A stretch of 43,439 bases of DNA from a virus (Duplodnaviria > Heunggongvirae > Uroviricota > Caudoviricetes). A model generated the notes under the pieces. That model was given only the letters and a program-made list of their open reading frames with translations, searched no databases and was not told where the DNA came from. Positions 22,748 through 32,156 of this stretch are shown one piece after another. Location: IMG/VR virus record IMGVR_UViG_2711768068_000024. One strand, given 5' to 3'. Positions within the stretch are counted from its first letter, which is position 1. Every line of letters starts with the position of its first letter. Made by a program: the position numbers and the translations under genes.

Positions 22748-24514
22748 ATGAACACCACACTGACACCCGCAGATCTCGATCCCCGTCGGCAGGCCATGCT
22801 GCTGTACTTTCAGGGATACCGCGTCGCCCGCATTGCTGAAATGCTGGGCGAGAAAGTTGCAACCGTTCACAGCTGGAAAAAACGCGACAAGTGGGGTGAC
22901 TATGGGCCGCTGGATCAGATGCAGCTCACCACCGCCGCACGCTACTGCCAGCTCATTATGAAGGAGCACAAAGAAGGGAAAGATTTCAAAGAAATTGACC
23001 TGCTGGCACGCCAGTCTGAGCGCCACGCGCGGATCGGCAAGTTTAACAATGGCGGCAACGAAGCCGACTTAAACCCTAACGTTGCCAACCGCAACAAAGG
23101 CCCACGTCGTCAGCCGGAAAAGAATGTTTTCACCGATGAACAGATTGAGAAACTGGAAGAAATCTTCCATTCCTCTATGTTCAACTACCAGCGCCACTGG
23201 TGGGAAGCCGGAAAAACCAACCGCATCCGCAACCTGCTGAAGTCACGCCAGATCGGCGCGACCTTTTACTTTGCCCGTGAAGCCCTGATTGACGCCCTGC
23301 TGACCGGGCGTAACCAGATTTTCCTTTCTGCCAGCAAGGCTCAGGCCCACGTCTTTAAACAGTACATCATCGACTTTGCCAAAGAAGTGGAGGTGGAGCT
23401 GAAAGGCGATCCGATGGTGCTTCCTAACGGGGCCACGCTTTACTTCCTCGGCACCAATGCCCGCACGGCCCAGAGTTACCACGGCAACCTGTATCTGGAT
23501 GAATATTTCTGGATACCGAAATTCCAGGAGCTGCGCAAAGTGGCTTCCGGTATGGCTATTCACAAAAAATGGCGACAAACCTATTTTTCCACGCCATCCA
23601 GTCTGACACACAGTGCTTATCCGTTCTGGTCCGGTGCGCTGTTCAACCGTGGGCGCAACAAAGCCGATAAGGTGGACATCGACCTGTCCCACAGCAATCT
23701 GGCCCCCGGCCTGCTGTGCGCAGACGGGCAATACCGCCAGATAGTCACCGTGGAAGATGCGGTGCGCGGCGGCTGTAACCTGTTCGACCTCGACCAGCTA
23801 CGCATGGAGTACAGCCCAGACGAATACCAGAACCTGCTGATGTGCGAGTTTGTGGACGATCTCGCGTCCGTGTTTCCGCTCAGCGAGCTGCAGGCGTGCA
23901 TGGTGGACAGTTGGGAAGTCTGGACCGACTTTCATGCACTGGCGCTGCGCCCGTTTGGCTGGCGCGAAGTGTGGATCGGTTATGACCCGGCAAAAGGTAC
24001 GCAAAACGGCGACAGCGCTGGATGCGTGGTGGTGGCACCGCCAGCCGTGCCGGGTGGTAAGTTCCGCATTCTTGAGCGTCACCAGTGGCGCGGGATGGAC
24101 TTCCGCGCCCAGGCTGACGCCATCAAAAAACTTACCGAACAGTACAACGTGACTTATATCGGTATCGACTCAACCGGCGTTGGTCACGGGGTTTACGAGA
24201 ACGTGAAAGCGTTCTTTCCTGCCGTCCGGGAGTTTGTCTACAACCCCAACGTTAAAAACGCCCTGGTACTCAAGGCCTACGACATTATCAGCCACCGCCG
24301 TCTGGAGTTTGACGCCGGGCACACCGACATTGCGCAGTCATTCATGGCAATCCGTCGCGCAACCACCGCCAGTGGCAACCGCCCAACCTATGAAGCCAGC
24401 CGCAGCGAAGAAGCCAGCCACGCCGATCTGGCCTGGGCAACAATGCACGCACTGTTTAACGAACCACTGCAGGGCGAGTCCGCCAATACCAGTAATATTG
24501 TGGAGATTTTTTGA
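22748..24514 (+). CDS. Terminase ATPase (large) subunit gpP
   Basis: 588 aa, divergent from the O-N-M-L operon as in P2. Confidence 0.9.
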   Translation: MNTTLTPADLDPRRQAMLLYFQGYRVARIAEMLGEKVATVHSWKKRDKWGDYGPLDQMQLTTAARYCQLIMKEHKEGKDFKEIDLLARQSERHARIGKFNNGGNEADLNPNVANRNKGPRRQPEKNVFTDEQIEKLEEIFHSSMFNYQRHWWEAGKTNRIRNLLKSRQIGATFYFAREALIDALLTGRNQIFLSASKAQAHVFKQYIIDFAKEVEVELKGDPMVLPNGATLYFLGTNARTAQSYHGNLYLDEYFWIPKFQELRKVASGMAIHKKWRQTYFSTPSSLTHSAYPFWSGALFNRGRNKADKVDIDLSHSNLAPGLLCADGQYRQIVTVEDAVRGGCNLFDLDQLRMEYSPDEYQNLLMCEFVDDLASVFPLSELQACMVDSWEVWTDFHALALRPFGWREVWIGYDPAKGTQNGDSAGCVVVAPPAVPGGKFRILERHQWRGMDFRAQADAIKKLTEQYNVTYIGIDSTGVGHGVYENVKAFFPAVREFVYNPNVKNALVLKAYDIISHRRLEFDAGHTDIAQSFMAIRRATTASGNRPTYEASRSEEASHADLAWATMHALFNEPLQGESANTSNIVEIF

Positions 24515-25551
24515 TGGGAAAGAGTAAGAAGAACCGCGCTGCGTCGACGAACCAGATCCAGCATAAAAGTCAAACTACAGCCGAAGCATTCAGCTTCGGT
24601 GATCCCGTTCCTGTTCTGGACCGCCGCGAACTACTGGACTATGTGGAATGCGTACAGACAGATCGCTGGTATGAGCCGCCAGTAAGCTTTGACGGACTGG
24701 CGCGCACCTTCCGCGCCGCCGTGCATCACAGTTCACCAATTGCGGTGAAATGCAACATTCTGACCAGTACCTACATCCCCCACCCGCTGCTCAGCCAGCA
24801 GGCTTTTTCACGTTTTGTGCAGGACTATCTGGTATTTGGTAACGCCTACCTGGAGAAACGCACGAACCGCTTCGGTGAAGTTATCGCCCTTGAGCCTGCT
24901 CTGGCAAAATACACCCGACGCGGGTTAGACCTGGATACCTACTGGTTTGTGCAATACGGCATGACTACGCAGCCGTATCAGTTCACGAAAGGCAGCATCT
25001 TTCATCTGATGGAACCGGATATCAACCAGGAGATCTACGGCCTGCCCGGTTATCTTTCTGCCATTCCGTCAGCCCTGCTCAACGAGTCCGCCACGTTGTT
25101 CCGCCGTAAGTATTACATTAACGGCAGCCATGCAGGCTTCATCATGTACATGACCGATGCCGCGCAGAATCAGGAGGATGTGAACAACCTCCGCAACGCG
25201 ATGAAAAGCGCCAAAGGTCCAGGCAACTTCCGCAACCTGTTTATGTACTCACCTAACGGCAAAAAAGACGGGCTTCAGATCATCCCATTGTCAGAAGTCG
25301 CGGCGAAGGATGAATTTCTTAACATCAAGAACGTGAGTCGGGATGACATGATGGCAGCGCACCGCGTGCCGCCGCAAATGATGGGGATTATGCCGAATAA
25401 TGTTGGGGGGTTTGGGGATGTGGAAAAGGCAAGCCGTGTATTCGTCCGAAATGAGCTAATGCCACTACAAAAGCGATTACAGGAGATGAATGATTGGCTT
25501 GGCAAGGAGGCGATACAGTTTAATACCTACTCGCTAGATATAGTCCCATAA
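24511..25551 (+). CDS. Portal protein gpQ
   Basis: 346 aa, 4-nt overlap with P, P2 Q-like. Confidence 0.9.
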   Translation: MMGKSKKNRAASTNQIQHKSQTTAEAFSFGDPVPVLDRRELLDYVECVQTDRWYEPPVSFDGLARTFRAAVHHSSPIAVKCNILTSTYIPHPLLSQQAFSRFVQDYLVFGNAYLEKRTNRFGEVIALEPALAKYTRRGLDLDTYWFVQYGMTTQPYQFTKGSIFHLMEPDINQEIYGLPGYLSAIPSALLNESATLFRRKYYINGSHAGFIMYMTDAAQNQEDVNNLRNAMKSAKGPGNFRNLFMYSPNGKKDGLQIIPLSEVAAKDEFLNIKNVSRDDMMAAHRVPPQMMGIMPNNVGGFGDVEKASRVFVRNELMPLQKRLQEMNDWLGKEAIQFNTYSLDIVP

Positions 25552-25553
25552 TA

Positions 25554-25584
25554 AGAAAAGCCACCGTTTGGTGGCTTTTCTTCA
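25554..25584. terminator. Bidirectional hairpin between convergent portal gene and cargo operon
   Basis: AAAGCCACC-gttt-GGTGGCTTT with flanking A/T runs, between the two converging stop codons. Confidence 0.5.
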
Positions 25585-25585
25585 T

Positions 25586-26326
25586 TTACTCAATAGGTTC
25601 AAACTCATCCTGAGGAATCAGCGTCGATTGACAGGCTTGGCTTAGTACTCCTGATAATTTACATAATAACCGATAGTTATGAGGAGCATCATCGCTAATC
25701 TTTTCGACCGTTAAAGTGATTGATTTTGGATCATCCAATAACATCTTCTTGATATCATTACTTAAATACCTAGGGCAGTAACCAACGATTTCAGCTGGTT
25801 TATCTGCACGAACGACAACAGCATCCCCATCGTATTCATTTTGAAGATCCAAGCAAAGACGCAAAATTTGCCCCGGTTTCAATTCAGATACACGAGCATT
25901 AGCTAAGCTATTTAAGTAACCAAGTCCATGTAAGAAGAAAAAATGCTCAAAGTTACCATCAGAATCAACATCAATTTTTTTGAAAATCTGCAGCTGATCA
26001 GTGCTTCGTAAGCCTCCCGAGCGAGCAAGAATATCGATAGGATTTACCTTATCTTCTTCAAATCCAAGCCATTTAATGAAACTCGGATACTCTGGACGTC
26101 TCGGTGATAAAAGGCGATTTTTAAAAAGAGGAAACAATTCTTCCGAAACATAAGTTTCACGAACATCACTCATGCCGCTAAACTTTGTAAATTTAGTAGA
26201 TTTAAGAGCACCTTTGGTATACCTGAAAACATACCCCGATTTGCGCTCTTGCAAGTTACCAACAACATGCCAGTCTCTGGTATCTGGTGCCTGCCATGCG
26301 ACGTAAACGGAGTTTGTATTAGTCAT
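25586..26326 (-). CDS. HipA-N-terminal-like domain fused to HIRAN-like domain
   Basis: 246 aa; N-terminus VYVAWQ..VVGNL..YVFRY..ELFPLFKNRLL resembles the HipA N-terminal subdomain; C-terminus ILRLCLDLQNEYDGDAVVVRADKPAEIVGYCPRYL fits the HIRAN pattern; 4-nt overlap with the upstream kinase gene. Confidence 0.55.
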   Translation of the reverse strand: MTNTNSVYVAWQAPDTRDWHVVGNLQERKSGYVFRYTKGALKSTKFTKFSGMSDVRETYVSEELFPLFKNRLLSPRRPEYPSFIKWLGFEEDKVNPIDILARSGGLRSTDQLQIFKKIDVDSDGNFEHFFFLHGLGYLNSLANARVSELKPGQILRLCLDLQNEYDGDAVVVRADKPAEIVGYCPRYLSNDIKKMLLDDPKSITLTVEKISDDAPHNYRLLCKLSGVLSQACQSTLIPQDEFEPIE

Positions 26327-27237
26327 TCTAGTAACCTTCTGCGATTTTCCATTACCATTAACGTTGCAAATCTACGTGCACTGTCGGATATACACGATGA
26401 AGGCACTTGGTTAAACACATCTGTAATGGAATCTTCTGTTAAAACGCTCAACTTACCTAACCAATGGTCGCGAGCGGCAACTCTCCCTTCAACTGCATGT
26501 TGAAATGCTTCAACGGTCAGCAAGGGCTTTTTATCAGTTTTTGCTTTGAATAGCTCAGAGCGAGCTTTTCTTACAAAACATGGGATTTGTCGATTTTTAT
26601 CTTTAGTATTAAGCCGTTCGTTACGCTCATCATCTAACATCTCCCTTCCTAAACTAGCGGCATGATCGTATGTTGGACACAAAAACTGCTCACCAGTTTC
26701 ATTGTTAAGCATGATCGCCCAATTTTCATGATGGCGATCTTGATTACTCACAAGTGCATCGAGCATCAAATATCCACAAAATACATCTGCTGCATTTAGC
26801 CCGGTTAGATCATATACACTCGGAGGAGGCTTGATAGATTCCCTATCCAAACAACCCAATACCCTTGTGACAGTGTGTTCTCTGACCCTTACCGGCTTTT
26901 CCCCGGCTTGTAAAGGCCCAGGATAATCGAATGTCGAACTGTGAAGCACTTCATTTCCCATTACCATCCGGAAACCAGATGGAATGATATTCTGAGTCAC
27001 CACACCGAATCGACCATTGTATCGCGCCAAATCATAGCTAGCATGTGGAATGTTAAGCAAATGACATAACTCAGCAGCACACTTTTCAGACCAATGCTCG
27101 CCAGTACCTGGCCTAGAGTACTTAAACAACTGCAAATTTACAGTGTCATCGGAGAAATAGAACCAAAACTTCTCTTTGGTTCCTAACTGTTCAAGATCGT
27201 TAGCTACGGGGCTAAGCTCTACCAATTGGTATGGCAT
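26323..27237 (-). CDS. HipA-like Ser/Thr kinase core (HipT-like, no N-terminal domain)
   Basis: 304 aa; GTKEKFW (P-loop-like), LVSNQDRHHENWAIM (catalytic loop, compare HipA GATDGHAKNFS), PTYDHAASL (metal-binding YD). Confidence 0.7.
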   Translation of the reverse strand: MPYQLVELSPVANDLEQLGTKEKFWFYFSDDTVNLQLFKYSRPGTGEHWSEKCAAELCHLLNIPHASYDLARYNGRFGVVTQNIIPSGFRMVMGNEVLHSSTFDYPGPLQAGEKPVRVREHTVTRVLGCLDRESIKPPPSVYDLTGLNAADVFCGYLMLDALVSNQDRHHENWAIMLNNETGEQFLCPTYDHAASLGREMLDDERNERLNTKDKNRQIPCFVRKARSELFKAKTDKKPLLTVEAFQHAVEGRVAARDHWLGKLSVLTEDSITDVFNQVPSSCISDSARRFATLMVMENRRRLLE

Positions 27238-27387
27238 CTGACATCCCTGTTTAGCGGATTATGAATAAGTTAGGTTCCATTTTATCCAAACATTGCCAAA
27301 TACTCTAAGATTTATTAGATGATAGAGCGATACTGTATGCATGTCCAGCAATCAAATCAATATATAACTCTTATATGACTTAGCGCG

Positions 27388-27410
27388 CGCTCGTATCCCC
27401 GCCACGCCTG
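27388..27410. other. Probable cos site (P2/186-type cohesive end)
   Basis: Bottom strand reads GGCGTGGCGGGGATACGAG, sharing its first 13 nt with the 186-type cos sequence as I recall it; lies in the AT-rich gap between cargo genes, as cos sits next to Q in P2. Confidence 0.45.
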
Positions 27411-27845
27411 CCCGCTTTGTGTAGTGGTTTTCATGCAGTTGCATAACATAAGCAAAAGCTCGTCAGAACTGGCAGGCTTCGACTTAAACGATCCACTAGC
27501 GATCATTCATTTTCATGCAGCATAGGTATGCACCAGAGTTACTTTGAGGTGCAATGGATGATACCTACAGATTTGCTACCCAAGGTCATGCTGAAAATCT
27601 ATCGCATCTGTATGATGCCGCGGACATAGCAAAATCTCCCCATGCAGTGACAAACTACTTGAGTAAATACTGTTGTGTTACCACAAGAAGAGATTTCAAA
27701 AGGAAAACAACGCTATGTTATCTAGTACATATAGCTATAAATGTCTTAATTTTAGCCAATACATTGAATTAAATGAAAAAATACTTTAGTTTGTATACTA
27801 TTTTTTAGCGTTCAAGATTATGCAATTTTTTGGAGAGAACTATAA

Positions 27846-28814
27846 GTGGGATCTTTCAGTTTACTTGCATCACGACCAATACCAACTGTGCTAGAAACAA
27901 GACAGTTTAACTCAGTTAACGGCAGTGACGCCGAATCTTATGCAATGAGTCAATTCATTCTTGCTTGTAGAGGAGAGGGGCACTGGGGTTCCAGGGAAGA
28001 CGACAATTCAAAAATAGATTTAATATTATCCTTCGAACATCCATGGGCATCAAAAGAAAGAATGCTTATATTATCGCAAGTTAAATCAGGGGCAACTTAT
28101 GGTCATTTATTAGAGAAAGGTTTTGTATTAAATTCGGCCGCAAAAAAAGCAGCCAAAAGGACAACTCACCATATATGTGTCGTTTGGGTTGACAGAACTA
28201 ATCGTAAAGCATTTTGGGCCTATATACATCCAAACACTACCCTTAAAAACCAAACTTATGGAGAATATCACTTAATCACTCCGGCCACACGGTTTGACCT
28301 GGCTCGCTGTATGTCCATGGTACGTGCAGGTGAAACTGGAGCAAAAGGAATCCATGTAAGAAGAAGAAACTCACTACTTAATAATCGGCGAGCGTTTGTT
28401 AAAAAACGTTATTCTGAACAGAAAGAAATCACATCTCCGGTGCTTGGGAAAATCGAGCTTACACGGCTGGGTTGGAGACATATGTTCAGAAAGAGTCGCA
28501 GAGAAGAAAACAAAGCAACGAGTTTGGACATTATTCCCTACTTGAGAAATTTACTAGTTCGGTTTCCTTCAACTCATGCTATTACTTCTTCTGATGTCCG
28601 TGATTACGGCTGTTTTACTTACCAAAGAAGAGAGCACTTATTGAAATTTAATAATCTAGAGGTTACTTATGCCAAAGGAGAGGGAAAAAATAAAGTATGT
28701 GCTTATATTCGTGTTATAGAAGAAATAAGGTATCCAAAAGATTGGACTAACGCGGTAATGCTATCACAGCAGGTTGAAAGACGAGTGGTTTTGAAGTCAG
28801 CATATTATAAATAA
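27846..28814 (+). CDS. Hypothetical cargo protein at the tin/old-equivalent position (between cos and gene A)
   Basis: 322-aa AT-rich ORF with GTG start preceded by GGAGAG; basic C-terminal half; weak nuclease-like motif (KIDLILSF ... LSQVK), not confidently assigned. Confidence 0.6.
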   Translation: MGSFSLLASRPIPTVLETRQFNSVNGSDAESYAMSQFILACRGEGHWGSREDDNSKIDLILSFEHPWASKERMLILSQVKSGATYGHLLEKGFVLNSAAKKAAKRTTHHICVVWVDRTNRKAFWAYIHPNTTLKNQTYGEYHLITPATRFDLARCMSMVRAGETGAKGIHVRRRNSLLNNRRAFVKKRYSEQKEITSPVLGKIELTRLGWRHMFRKSRREENKATSLDIIPYLRNLLVRFPSTHAITSSDVRDYGCFTYQRREHLLKFNNLEVTYAKGEGKNKVCAYIRVIEEIRYPKDWTNAVMLSQQVERRVVLKSAYYK

Positions 28815-29398
28815 CGAGGCCGTTGGGAAGCCAGCACTTGCGCCCATGCTCTGCCAGATTCCGGTTTCGAATCGGTTCTCTGGCAATAATGCGGATAGCG
28901 TACTGGGCATCAGCCTTAGCTTTTGCACTCAACCCAACGACCAAGTGATGAAGCATACTAGTAAAGAAACTTTAATTCTAGATGTTTTGAAGCAATTCTC
29001 ACATCAAGTATTAATTTTTCTAAAGCAATGACCTAATGGTATGTCAGGTTTCAACGAAAATTGGCAACCAATCTAGATAACTGTACCTTTTCAAAAAACT
29101 GGTGCGTATCGTTAGTCTCCTTTCGCCGTTGTTCCAGTCTGGTCGCTTCAATAAAAAGCAAGGCCGCCGTACAGCGAAACTATATAATCATAGCTTAAGC
29201 CAAATCACTCATCTAAGGTGTGGCTCCATTAGTAGTTTGAGCGCTAACAGCCCCTCTGGCGATAAAACTACTCAATACCTGGCACGAAGCAAAATCTGGA
29301 AGTTACTATTTTTTTCCCATGACTAACGCCTCGCATGGCTCGTTGATCAACCTTGCTAGCGTCAGAATCAAGTCCTAACGCCAGCAACGTTTCTAAGC

Positions 29399-29587
29399 CT
29401 AACCGGGGAGATCCATTGAACGGTTGTACTCATGAGTACGGATTTTCGCCATTAACTCATCGGTCAGCTCCGAAACCCACTGGATAGCAAGCCGCTTCTC
29501 TTCATCATCGCACTCACTAGCCGCTACAAGCTTAAGAAAAAAATCAATGCGCTGGAGCTTCAAAGACTCCAAAAAATAGTCCTGCAT
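29399..29587 (-). CDS. Hypothetical small protein downstream of A
   Basis: 62-aa ORF in the orf91-like position; weak support. Confidence 0.3.
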   Translation of the reverse strand: MQDYFLESLKLQRIDFFLKLVAASECDDEEKRLAIQWVSELTDELMAKIRTHEYNRSMDLPG

Positions 29588-29741
29588 CTTTCCTCCTATG
29601 ACACCACACGCAATACTGTATGTATAACCACTGTTTATATTTACAGTATATAATAATCTTACTGATGTAAAACGTTTTTTTTACGCTTATCAGCCTGATA
29701 TGCCTGATATTATTAAGAGCACGAATTGTTAACCAGCGTAA

Positions 29742-32156
29742 TTAATACAGGTTCCGCCACTTATCATCTTCCTGCAAACGCTGGTTCCGATAGAAGATAC
29801 GCAGGCCTGCTCCTGACGGAATACTGCCGCCGCGAAGGAGTAAATCGACCTCTTTCTCGCTGCCATCAAATCCTCTGGATTTCAGTTCATAGACGAGCTG
29901 CTGTCGTTGATGGTCTGTAATTCGCTGTTTGTAGTCTCTACGCCGTTTCGGTTTCACCAGACGTAACCTTGCAGCCAATTCCCGGCGCTCCTTTTTGTTC
30001 ATACTGTGCAGGTAATCGTGCAACACCTTGTCATCCATGCGGGTAATGTCCGTTCTGGGGTCCCCATCAGCTGATTTATCTTTCTCCTGTTGGTTCAAAT
30101 TTTCAGCAAGGGGACAGTTATTGCCACGAGTCCAAGGGGCGCAAGCGCCCTGGTCGGCTGCCGCCTCCTGAACGTCAACGGCCTTACGAACCATTTTCCA
30201 CTTCACCGCATGAGTGCAGATCTTGCCCTCTGCAATGGGTGACCAGATGCCATAAATACGAATACCGTGATCGCCATAGGCGGTCGGCTCTTCGTTGATT
30301 TCATAAGCAGTTCTGATGAGGTGATATTTGCGGGGAACCAGTACGCCGCCCTGCTTCATGATGTAGGTGGCAAAACAACCAGCATCAGCAGCAGCCAGGA
30401 TTGCATCAAGGCGCGGGTTATCCAGTACCGGCGCACCTGCTTTTTTGTCCCCCTGTTGCCTTGCCGCCTGACCAGCCAGCAATCGCAGTTCACGGTAAGC
30501 CTGACGCCCCGGAATGCCAAAGAAGCGGAATTGCTGAACACGATGCAGAGACGCCCAGGCATTAACGTATTCAGCGTTATCACGCAGGGATTTACCCGTT
30601 TCCTTGCTGATCTCGCCAGCCAGACCACGCCCGTCAATGTTCTTACTGATGTATTTCGCGATGTAGCTTGTTGGCGTACCTTTGCGCGGGTTTATCAGCT
30701 CAGACTTAAAGCGTGGCCCCGTGTTATTGCCCAGCTCCTCGCGGTCTTCACGGATGGCAAACTTACGCAACAATGCAGTAATGGCGCGGCGGTCTTTTTT
30801 GCGCATGAAACACAACAGGTGCCAGTGAACTGTGCCGTCATGATGCGGTTCAGCCACCCGCACGCCATACCAGCGCAACCCGGCTTTGTGCATAGCCTTA
30901 CGAAATGCAGCAAACATGCCGACCAGATAATCGCTGCTTTGTCTTACCGTCGCGTTTGTCCAGGTCGGGTTTGGTCTGCCGTTATTGAGCGTGGAATGGA
31001 AACGCGACGGACAGGTGATAGTGTAGAAAACGGCACAGTCACTGCGCATTTCTGCGATAAGCTCCAGACCTTTAACACAGGCCATCATCTCATTGCGGCG
31101 ATGCGCCGGGTTGCTGCTGCTGGCGTTTACCACATCCTCCATGTCCAGCGTGTCGCCGTCTTCGTTCACCAGTTCATGAGAACGGAAAAACTCCAGCGAC
31201 TTACGGCGCTGCTCACGTTTATGCATCACGGCTTCATAGCTGACATAGGGAGATGCTTTTTTGCTGACCAGGCAAACAGCACGCAACTGCTCTTCCCGCC
31301 ATTCGCAACGCATCTTCCATAATTTCCGGTACCACCAATCGGCGCACAACATACGCGCCAGCGAACCCGGAATGAGTTCATAGGGCACGGGTTTACGGCG
31401 GTTTCTTTTCCGACGAAGTTGCTCAAACGCAGGCGGGATAACATCCAGTCGCAGGGTTTCTGCTGCCACCTTTTCCCATGTCTTGCGGATTTCTTCTGGC
31501 TTAACATCATCGGTGGCGTACAAATCACCACAAGCGGCATCAAGACACATGCTCATATGCGCAGCGACAAGAGTAGACAGGCGTTTCACCTGATCCTGAC
31601 TCATTTCAGGCAGAATCAGCAGGTCGTCCAGCCCTACATGGCTTGCCATAAAACGAAAAGATGCAGATAGCTGGCTGTCGCGTACATGCTCCAGTCGCTC
31701 CAAACATGGCTTAATCGTCTCACGCAAATAGCGGGAATAAGCCTTTGGCCTGCCCAAGCTGCTGAAGTATTCAATACGTTGCATCAGCGGCTTGCTGATA
31801 TGGGAAGGCTGGGCATTGACGTCCGCCAGAATGACCATATCTGGATTAAAACGCTGCTGCTCATGCGCCAGCTTTGCCCGACTAATGAGCTTATCCTGCT
31901 CCATTTCGCGCTGGACAGGATCACGGGATTCATTAAAGAAATAACGCTCCCAGACCTGATCACTCAGTGCCTCGCGGCGCAGGTGTTCCTGCTCGTTATC
32001 GGCAGCGTACAGAGCGATCAGGTTTGAAAGCGCAGAAACCGGCGCAACTTCCGCCGGGTCCAGATAAGGGTTAATGGCCTTTTTCGGGCTGTTCCATGAG
32101 AACGCTGCGGCAGCCTCGTTAAAGCCGCAGCAGTTGTTCATATCGGCATGGCTCAT
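29742..32156 (-). CDS. Replication initiation protein gpA (rolling-circle nickase)
   Basis: 804 aa, P2/186 A-like size and position. Confidence 0.9.

Follow-up and report, generated by a model that had tools for sequence, protein, structure and literature searches.

A hipIN-Type Kinase and HIRAN Gene Pair as Cargo between gpQ and cos in a P2-Like Escherichia coli Prophage

A Two-Gene Cargo Locus next to cos

The virus record IMGVR_UViG_2711768068_000024 (Caudoviricetes), whose full length of 43,439 nucleotides (nt) is referred to here as the window, carries two minus-strand genes between the portal gene gpQ and the cos site. The upstream gene encodes a HipA-like kinase and the downstream gene encodes a partner with a HIRAN domain, and we found that the two very probably form a member of the hipIN family, which PADLOC lists as PDC-M03; they are called hipI and hipN below. 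The features of the locus are collected in table 1. An earlier note on this DNA, made from the sequence alone, had described two minus-strand genes with a 4-nt overlap, and both the coordinates and the junction, which reads CTA GAA TGA / ATG ACT and yields the shared ATGA, agreed with that description. The proteins WP_001146828 and WP_000185757 annotate the locus in E. coli genomes that are 99–100% identical to the window.

The pair occupies the gpQ–cos slot of a P2-like E. coli prophage as cargo. The GC content was 0.41 for hipI–hipN and also 0.41 across the block 25552–29741, whereas the terminase and portal genes reached 0.55 and gpA 0.53, and because of this difference the pair was regarded as foreign cargo. 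A direct search for the P2 cos 19-mer, exact or with up to three mismatches, found no copy, and the cos-equivalent was located via alignment to the P2 hotspot clones of Rousset et al. In particular, CTCGTATCCCCGCCACGCC and its flanks aligned position by position with the cos sequence GTGCTTTCCCCGCCTCGCC and the conserved flanks of these clones, and this cos-equivalent differs from the P2 cos 19-mer at approximately five positions. Among the matches listed, 27375–27494 was the only stretch of the query in common with P2-like phages. The AT-rich cargo block between gpQ and cos, as the earlier note had put it, was thus borne out by base composition and by the aligned 19-mer. The kinase start is separated from cos by 153 nt of noncoding DNA, a gap too small for a third gene.

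An AGGGA ribosome-binding site lies approximately 9 nt ahead of the kinase ATG, and the promoter candidate farther upstream is a consensus match alone. At the other end of the pair, the hairpin in the gap between the convergent stops is GC-rich with A and T runs on its flanks, and its sequence makes it a likely bidirectional terminator. Taken together, the promoter-like site, the ribosome-binding site, and the hairpin give hipI–hipN the features of a separate transcription unit. An Rfam scan of 25400–29800 returned one sub-threshold match only, to the Brucella small RNA BSnc120 at 25522–25600 on the plus strand (32 bits vs. a gathering score of 114); this candidate was rejected as most likely just the terminator hairpin.

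Table 1. Coordinates of the hipI–hipN Locus and Its Surroundings in the Window
Feature	Coordinates	Strand	Remarks
hipI-type kinase gene	26323..27237	minus	304 amino acids (aa); RefSeq WP_001146828.1
Gly-rich (P-)loop G19-T-K-E-K-F-W25	27163..27183	minus	Near the N-terminus; invariant in 18 homologues
Catalytic motif S164-N-Q-D167-R-H169-H-E-N172-W173	26719..26748	minus	Invariant in 18 homologues; within the HipA_C match; aligns with CtkA NFDRHNGNW
Mg-binding motif Y190-D191-H-A-A-S-L-G-R-E199	26641..26670	minus	Invariant in 18 homologues; aligns with CtkA FDCGSCL
ATGA, kinase stop and hipN start	26323..26326	minus	Translational coupling; read from the sequence
hipN-type partner gene	25586..26326	minus	246 aa, two domains; RefSeq WP_000185757.1
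HipS-like domain (like HipA N-subdomain 1)	25973..26314	minus	Residues ~5–118; invariant LFPLFxNR...RPEY and RSGGxRxTD
HIRAN domain	25643..25948	minus	Residues 127–228; Pfam HIRAN 1.1e-13, 51 bits vs. 24.7-bit threshold
Sigma-70-like promoter candidate TGGACA-17-TATCAT	27319..27347	minus	Between cos and kinase start; consensus scan, 10/12 matches
Hairpin GAAAAGCCACC-GTTT-GGTGGCTTTTC	25555..25580		Within the 34 nt that separate the convergent portal and hipN stops
cos-equivalent 19-mer CTCGTATCCCCGCCACGCC	27390–27408		Boundary of the hipIN cargo slot
P2-type terminase gene gpP	22748–24514		In prophage with capsid genes
Portal gene gpQ	24511–25551		Pfam Phage_portal 3.7e-19
Replication gene gpA	29742–32156

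Very Probable Membership in the hipIN (PDC-M03) Family

The hipIN modules were defined by Gerdes, Baerentsen and Brodersen (2021, mBio), with HipI as a short kinase of clade XI and HipN as the downstream protein that combines a HipS-like with a HIRAN domain (PMC8262856). The hipIN kinases comprise 279–321 aa, are devoid of HipA N-subdomain 1, and carry their Gly-rich loop near the N-terminus (PMC8262856). The window pair shows the same architecture, with a kinase of 304 aa, a Gly-rich loop at residues 19–25, and a downstream protein that has a HipS-like domain as well as a C-terminal HIRAN domain; no architectural difference from hipIN was observed, and the functional hypothesis is the same. 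In addition, both PADLOC models of PDC-M03 matched the adjacent genes with the 4-nt overlap, each over the full length of the protein: PDC-M03A matched the kinase at 2.1e-122 (residues 2–304), and PDC-M03B matched HipN at 3.4e-93 (residues 1–244). PADLOC-DB describes PDC-M03 (A, HipA-like; B, HIRAN) as a phage defence candidate that was taken from genomic context and is not validated, and a 2026 paper gives it as HipA and HIRAN domain proteins. NCBIfam holds no model for the kinase or HipN, and the PHROGs families of both are of unknown function.

The location is also on record. The cos-proximal gpA–gpQ region of P2-like phages is an experimentally supported anti-phage hotspot (Rousset et al. 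2022, PMC9122126), and Table S5A of that study lists WP_001146828 and WP_000185757 in the hotspot, where they are neither discussed nor validated. Table S6 of the same study names a hotspot pair from a Vibrio crassostreae ZF-91 prophage "HIRAN-kinase" (PMC9122126), and the partner protein of this pair was 35% identical to HipN over 223 aa (5e-43). A 2025 paper in Nucleic Acids Research described HipA and HIRAN gene pairs beside diDNase genes in Actinobacteria and cited the predicted defence role (PMC11706625); a third gene of this kind, encoding a DEDD exonuclease (diDNase-type), had no homologue in the window or in the 92 fetched loci. The tree of Gerdes et al. contains 14 hipIN modules, and its Table 1 gives no experimental test for clade XI (PMC8262856); the kinase accession was not found in the accessible part of the supplementary text. 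The earlier note had not recognized the combination as a named system, and it in fact bears the names hipIN (PMC8262856) and PDC-M03, with "HIRAN-kinase" used by Rousset et al. for the homologous Vibrio pair. Published work or PADLOC already covers the architecture and its name, the location in the hotspot, and the idea of the mechanism, and none of them is novel here.

HipI as a Short HipA-Superfamily Kinase

Scored alone, the window kinase reached 20.7 bits against HipA_C, with a match at residues 154–225 that lies under the 30.5-bit gathering threshold; because of this sub-threshold score, the kinase call that the earlier note had made by eye needed support. HipA_C was found in 17 of the 18 kinase family members (best E-value 4.4e-8), and the alignment of 18 homologues with 57–90% identity kept the three motifs of table 1 invariant. 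In the Gly-rich loop, T20 is a candidate autophosphorylation site on sequence grounds, and HipI kinases have a Ser or Thr near this loop (Gerdes et al. 2021, PMC8262856).

A single-sequence search of the PDB with the kinase gave no significant match, and the family profile found CtkA (6e-4) as its sole significant match. With HipN, the single-sequence search of the PDB likewise gave no significant match, and the HipN profile found neither HipS nor HLTF by sequence. Because these single-sequence searches, and the HipN profile, returned no relevant match, a fold search was needed for both proteins. The AlphaFold2 model of the kinase had a predicted local distance difference test score (pLDDT) of 81.5 and a predicted template modeling score (pTM) of 0.85, with low confidence at residues 96–107. 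Foldseek matched this model to CtkA (E-value 1.4e-9; template modeling score [TM] 0.70/0.75), to E. coli HipA (9e-7), and to Legionella HipT, alone or with HipS (8ezr_B and 7vkb; 3e-4 to 7e-4). With 304 aa and the Gly-rich loop at residues 19–25, the protein is without HipA N-subdomain 1. By its sequence and its model, the window kinase is a short Ser/Thr kinase of the HipA superfamily with intact catalytic motifs.

HipN as a HipS-Like Domain Fused to a HIRAN Domain

The HIRAN domain of HipN, which scored well above the Pfam threshold in the window (table 1), was found in all 19 HipN family members. The AlphaFold2 model of HipN (pLDDT 89.1, pTM 0.84) matched lp_0118 at 1.7e-5 and the HIRAN domain of HLTF at 5e-5 to 3e-4 in Foldseek. 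Within this domain, N163 and D166 were invariant, and the positions of Y137 and Y165 were aromatic or His. We take Y137, N163, Y165, and D166 to pair with Y72, N91, Y93, and D94 of HLTF, a tentative assignment from a profile alignment of only 20% probability, with self-consistent HLTF numbering; N163, Y165, and D166 belong to a conserved N-x-Y-D pocket motif. The profile alignment of HipN with HLTF stops short of the region of HLTF Phe142, and most bacterial HIRAN domains have no Phe142 equivalent, which was taken to suggest binding of single-stranded DNA over duplex (PMC8262856).

The N-terminal part of HipN matched Couple_hipA (HipA N-terminal domain) at a sub-threshold 0.018 in the window protein, and the same model was detected in 13 of 19 family members at E ≤ 0.1, with a best value of 7.3e-4. 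Foldseek matched the HipN model to chain E of 7ab3, the 101-residue HipS of the E. coli HipBST crystal structure (E-value 1.8e-3, probability 1.0, TM 0.72, 21% identity). Sequence and model together thus present HipN as a fusion of a HipS-like with a HIRAN domain, and the protein is a putative antitoxin or sensor.

In the earlier note, the kinase had been read as HipA-like without the N-terminal domain, and the partner as a segment resembling the missing HipA N-subdomain followed by a HIRAN-like C-terminal domain. All three readings were upheld by the family searches and the folds described above, as was the proposed kinship to HipS and HipT, and the quoted motifs GTKEKFW, SNQDRHHENW, and YDHAASLGRE, as well as the HipN strings, are all present in the translations. 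In the profile check that it had named, HIRAN stood above threshold, and HipA_C and Couple_hipA stayed below it in the window proteins and matched in family members.

Distribution, Linkage, and Genomic Contexts

In a 90%-clustered database, 955 homologues were counted for the kinase and 535 for HipN, and since homologues are this numerous and adjacency is kept across phyla, the two genes are not a chance pair of open reading frames (ORFs). A search of 1.84 billion cluster representatives with the kinase profile found 3144 clusters (50% identity) at E ≤ 1e-3 and 657 at E ≤ 1e-30, and nearly all of the top 150 comprised proteins of approximately 300 aa. HipN was scanned in one genome per species, and neighbourhoods were drawn from the best 80 loci. 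Relatives of HipN occurred in 308 species-representative genomes, from Gamma- and Betaproteobacteria, Desulfobulbaceae, Cyanobacteria, Verrucomicrobia, Planctomycetes, Campylobacterota, Nitrospirae, Flavobacteriales, and Acidobacteria. A HipI-type kinase ORF lay directly upstream of HipN on the same strand in 72 of the 79 loci with enough upstream DNA, with junctions from approximately −10 to +60 nt, and none of the 80 HipN-seeded loci held a fusion of the two. Co-occurrence and hotspot association, for which the earlier note had proposed a survey, were seen in these 72 loci and in the P2 defence hotspot, respectively.

The exact sequences of both proteins were present on at least 1000 public contigs. 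Of 5426 complete E. coli genomes, 21 carry the full-length locus; 1246 of these genomes share some part of the query, chiefly its portal end and the stretch around cos, and the 21 share it in full. No deposited phage record with the pair was found at megablast sensitivity. A Klebsiella P2/186-like prophage carries hipIN in the same gpQ–cos slot, an Escherichia copy lies within an AlpA/DUF3987 island, and an Ectopseudomonas copy lies in a region with integrase, PIN, and Fic genes. These observations indicated that the hipIN pair moves as a unit between unrelated genomic contexts.

Seven of the 79 HipN homologues had no adjoining HipI kinase (loci L049, L078, L079, L054, L062, L040, and L026). 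Three of them reside in type I restriction–modification operons, where HsdR is the immediate downstream neighbour in L049 and L079, and L078 has HsdS upstream; the homologue of L054 follows a 1138-aa SNF2/SWIM helicase, and that of L062 follows an HD-domain protein. These loci suggest that the HipS–HIRAN module may serve partners besides Hip kinases.

Comparison with Known Hip Systems

The earlier note had named HipBST as the nearest described analogue; hipIN, which has the same architecture as the window pair (PMC8262856), is closer. In HipBST of E. coli O127 and Legionella, as in the window, the HipA fold is split into an N-subdomain-like protein and a core kinase. However, HipBST is arranged as the helix-turn-helix protein HipB, HipS, and HipT, whereas the window holds two genes with the kinase first and without HipB, and the reversal of gene order that the earlier note had pointed out, with the kinase upstream of the HipS-like gene, was confirmed. 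HipS is a separate protein in HipBST, whereas the HipS-like domain of the window is fused to HIRAN, and the HipBST kinases belong to clade III, compared with clade XI for those of hipIN (PMC8262856). Thus, with kinase before HipS-like gene, the likely terminator after hipN, and no third gene, the window pair does not have the HipBST arrangement. HipL contains the kinase, HipS-like, and HIRAN parts in the same order in one polypeptide, and the window pair is split at the kinase/HipS-like boundary.

The window kinase has its fold and its catalytic motifs in common with HipA of HipBA and with Helicobacter pylori CtkA, at 10–16% sequence identity. In HipA the N-subdomains are present in cis and HipB is the neutralizing partner, whereas the window kinase has neither; in place of a HipA of approximately 440 aa with an upstream HipB, the locus has a 304-aa kinase with its HipA_C match at residues 154–225 and no HipB. 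CtkA, the best structural match of the window kinase, is described as a proinflammatory kinase. The HIRAN fold of HipN is common to HLTF and to lp_0118 of Lactobacillus; in HLTF it is borne on a helicase and in HipN on a HipS-like domain.

Neighbouring Cargo across cos

On the gpA side of cos, a second cargo gene was observed as a plus-strand ORF at 27846–28814, which encodes 322 aa from a GTG start. The RefSeq protein for this ORF, WP_024187696.1, comprises only 289 aa from a start at 27945; however, most of the listed homologues (179 in total) are 319–327 aa long and aligned over 99% of the long ORF, and the longer form with the GTG start is therefore probably correct. DUF4365 (PF14280) was found in many of these homologues and reached an E-value of 0.12 in the window copy, and the ORF had no match in PADLOC, PHROG, or NCBIfam. 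It is a candidate single-gene system of the defence hotspot. In E. coli GmM062 (L001, 8434–11333), a SIR2 gene and a gene for an ATP-binding protein lie across cos, in the slot that corresponds to 27409–29741 of the window and there holds the DUF4365 gene, and the hipIN pair of that strain is 99% identical to the window pair. Different cargo across cos beside the same hipIN indicates that the two sides of cos swap cargo independently.

A minus-strand ORF at 29399–29587 (62 aa; WP_021534477.1) adjoins gpA and matched PHROG 698, of unknown function, at 1.2e-36. The same protein recurs with the hipIN proteins in the P2 hotspot gene lists of Rousset et al., and it looks like a conserved P2-like backbone gene and not like cargo.

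A Possible Mechanism and Its Alternatives

[quoted passage not shown] HipN would, in analogous fashion, keep HipI inactive. Gerdes et al. proposed that HIRAN recognizes the DNA ends of an invading phage, which leads to kinase activation and abortive infection (PMC8262856). In such a scheme, HIRAN would bind free 3' DNA ends that arise during infection by another phage, and this binding would relieve the inhibition of HipI or activate the kinase. HipI would then phosphorylate an essential translation factor, and growth arrest would abort the infection; the probable target is an aminoacyl-tRNA synthetase, as for HipA and HipT. We put this toxin, antitoxin, and DNA-end-sensing defence mechanism at somewhat less than an even chance. 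The suggestion of the earlier note that a DNA-sensing partner gates a kinase toxin is plausible. In a more speculative proposal, to which we likewise give less than an even chance, HipN would directly sense free 3' ends of DNA in phage replication or packaging intermediates, which would move the HipS-like domain off the HipI active site or activate the holoenzyme, and type I restriction enzymes and SNF2 helicases would make use of the same HipS–HIRAN adaptor. Overall, a hipIN cargo module with the proposed mechanism is the best explanation and a fairly probable one, in an estimate that is a compromise between membership and mechanism.

Several observations weigh against this explanation. The HipS-like call depends on sub-threshold Pfam scores and a single Foldseek match, and no equivalent of HipS Trp65 was identified in HipN; the invariant residues R77-P-E79-Y80 and W86 are candidates for a Trp65-like role, judged from the alignment. 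The hipIN of V. cholerae is a bare two-gene insertion amid housekeeping genes, and neither mobile nor defence markers were seen within 8 kb. Our literature search found no experimental test of any hipIN module and no experimental defence study of hipIN, HipL, or HIRAN. The construct pFR108 (Table S2B of Rousset et al. 2022, PMC9122126), a fused HipL-like kinase that is paired with a DEDD exonuclease and comes from the P2 hotspot, appears in that study with the additional systems that were tested and not with the validated ones. The pairing resembles the diDNase, HipA, and HIRAN clusters of Actinobacteria (PMC11706625). The construct shares approximately 37% identity with the window kinase over 51 residues of the catalytic core, and because only this core is shared, it counts as a weak negative. 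Finally, because the HipA N-subdomain belongs to the active enzyme, HipN could assist the kinase as a cofactor instead of inhibiting it.

If HipN were such a cofactor, it might act as a targeting or activating subunit, in which the HipS-like domain would complete the kinase fold and HIRAN would tether the holoenzyme to DNA 3' ends. As a small analogue of DNA-end-activated kinases, the complex would phosphorylate DNA-bound replication or packaging proteins of phage or host without killing the cell. The N-subdomain is integral to active HipA, HipS docks in the same orientation, and the HipN model is a compact two-domain unit (pTM 0.84). HipN-like proteins also pair with HsdR, an SNF2 helicase, or an HD protein in place of a kinase, and the pairing with DNA-acting enzymes points to a general adaptor by which partners are brought to DNA ends. 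However, HipS inhibits in HipBST, the only experimentally studied split system, and the known substrates of HipA-family kinases are tRNA synthetases, not DNA-bound proteins (PMC8262856); we consider a targeting subunit quite improbable.

The toxin–antitoxin-like layout with translational coupling, and the self-contained form in which hipIN always travels, would also suit an addiction module without an immune role. HipI would be the toxin and HipN a labile antitoxin, the prophage or island would be stabilized by post-segregational killing, and HIRAN would serve autoregulation in place of HipB. HipBA and HipBST are classical type II systems. In hipIN, neither a HipB-like gene nor any other helix-turn-helix gene is present, so that autoregulation would depend on a different DNA-binding element. 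The characterized HIRAN domains bind DNA ends, however, and not operators, and a defence role fits better with a hotspot whose tested cargo is for the most part anti-phage, with the candidate status in PADLOC, and with the restriction–modification-linked HipN homologues that have no kinase. Addiction alone thus appears unlikely, and addiction and defence roles can coexist. The position of the pair 153 nt from the cos-like 19-mer, together with the binding of 3' ends by HIRAN, could also point to an accessory of the P2-like life cycle, in which HIRAN would bind the recessed 3' cohesive ends during packaging or injection and the kinase would have a regulatory part. We regard this as very improbable, and a cos-related packaging role was largely refuted by the distribution of the pair: of the 1246 complete E. 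coli genomes with some part of the region, just 21 hold it in full, the pair was seen in no deposited phage record at megablast sensitivity, and it resides in nonphage contexts (Vibrio, Ectopseudomonas, and the E. coli island) and in phyla without P2-like phages. Its GC content, in addition, marks the pair as foreign cargo.

Significance of hipIN for Phage Defence

The hipIN pair is common and lies in a proven defence hotspot, and its function is a published hypothesis, which makes it a target for experiments. If the proposed mechanism is true, hipIN would be a compact form of protein-kinase immunity triggered directly by DNA ends, in which a HipS-type antitoxin is wired to a nucleic-acid sensor. 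If HipN is indeed a direct sensor of DNA ends, hipIN would represent a minimal bacterial immune module built on a protein kinase that is activated by DNA ends.

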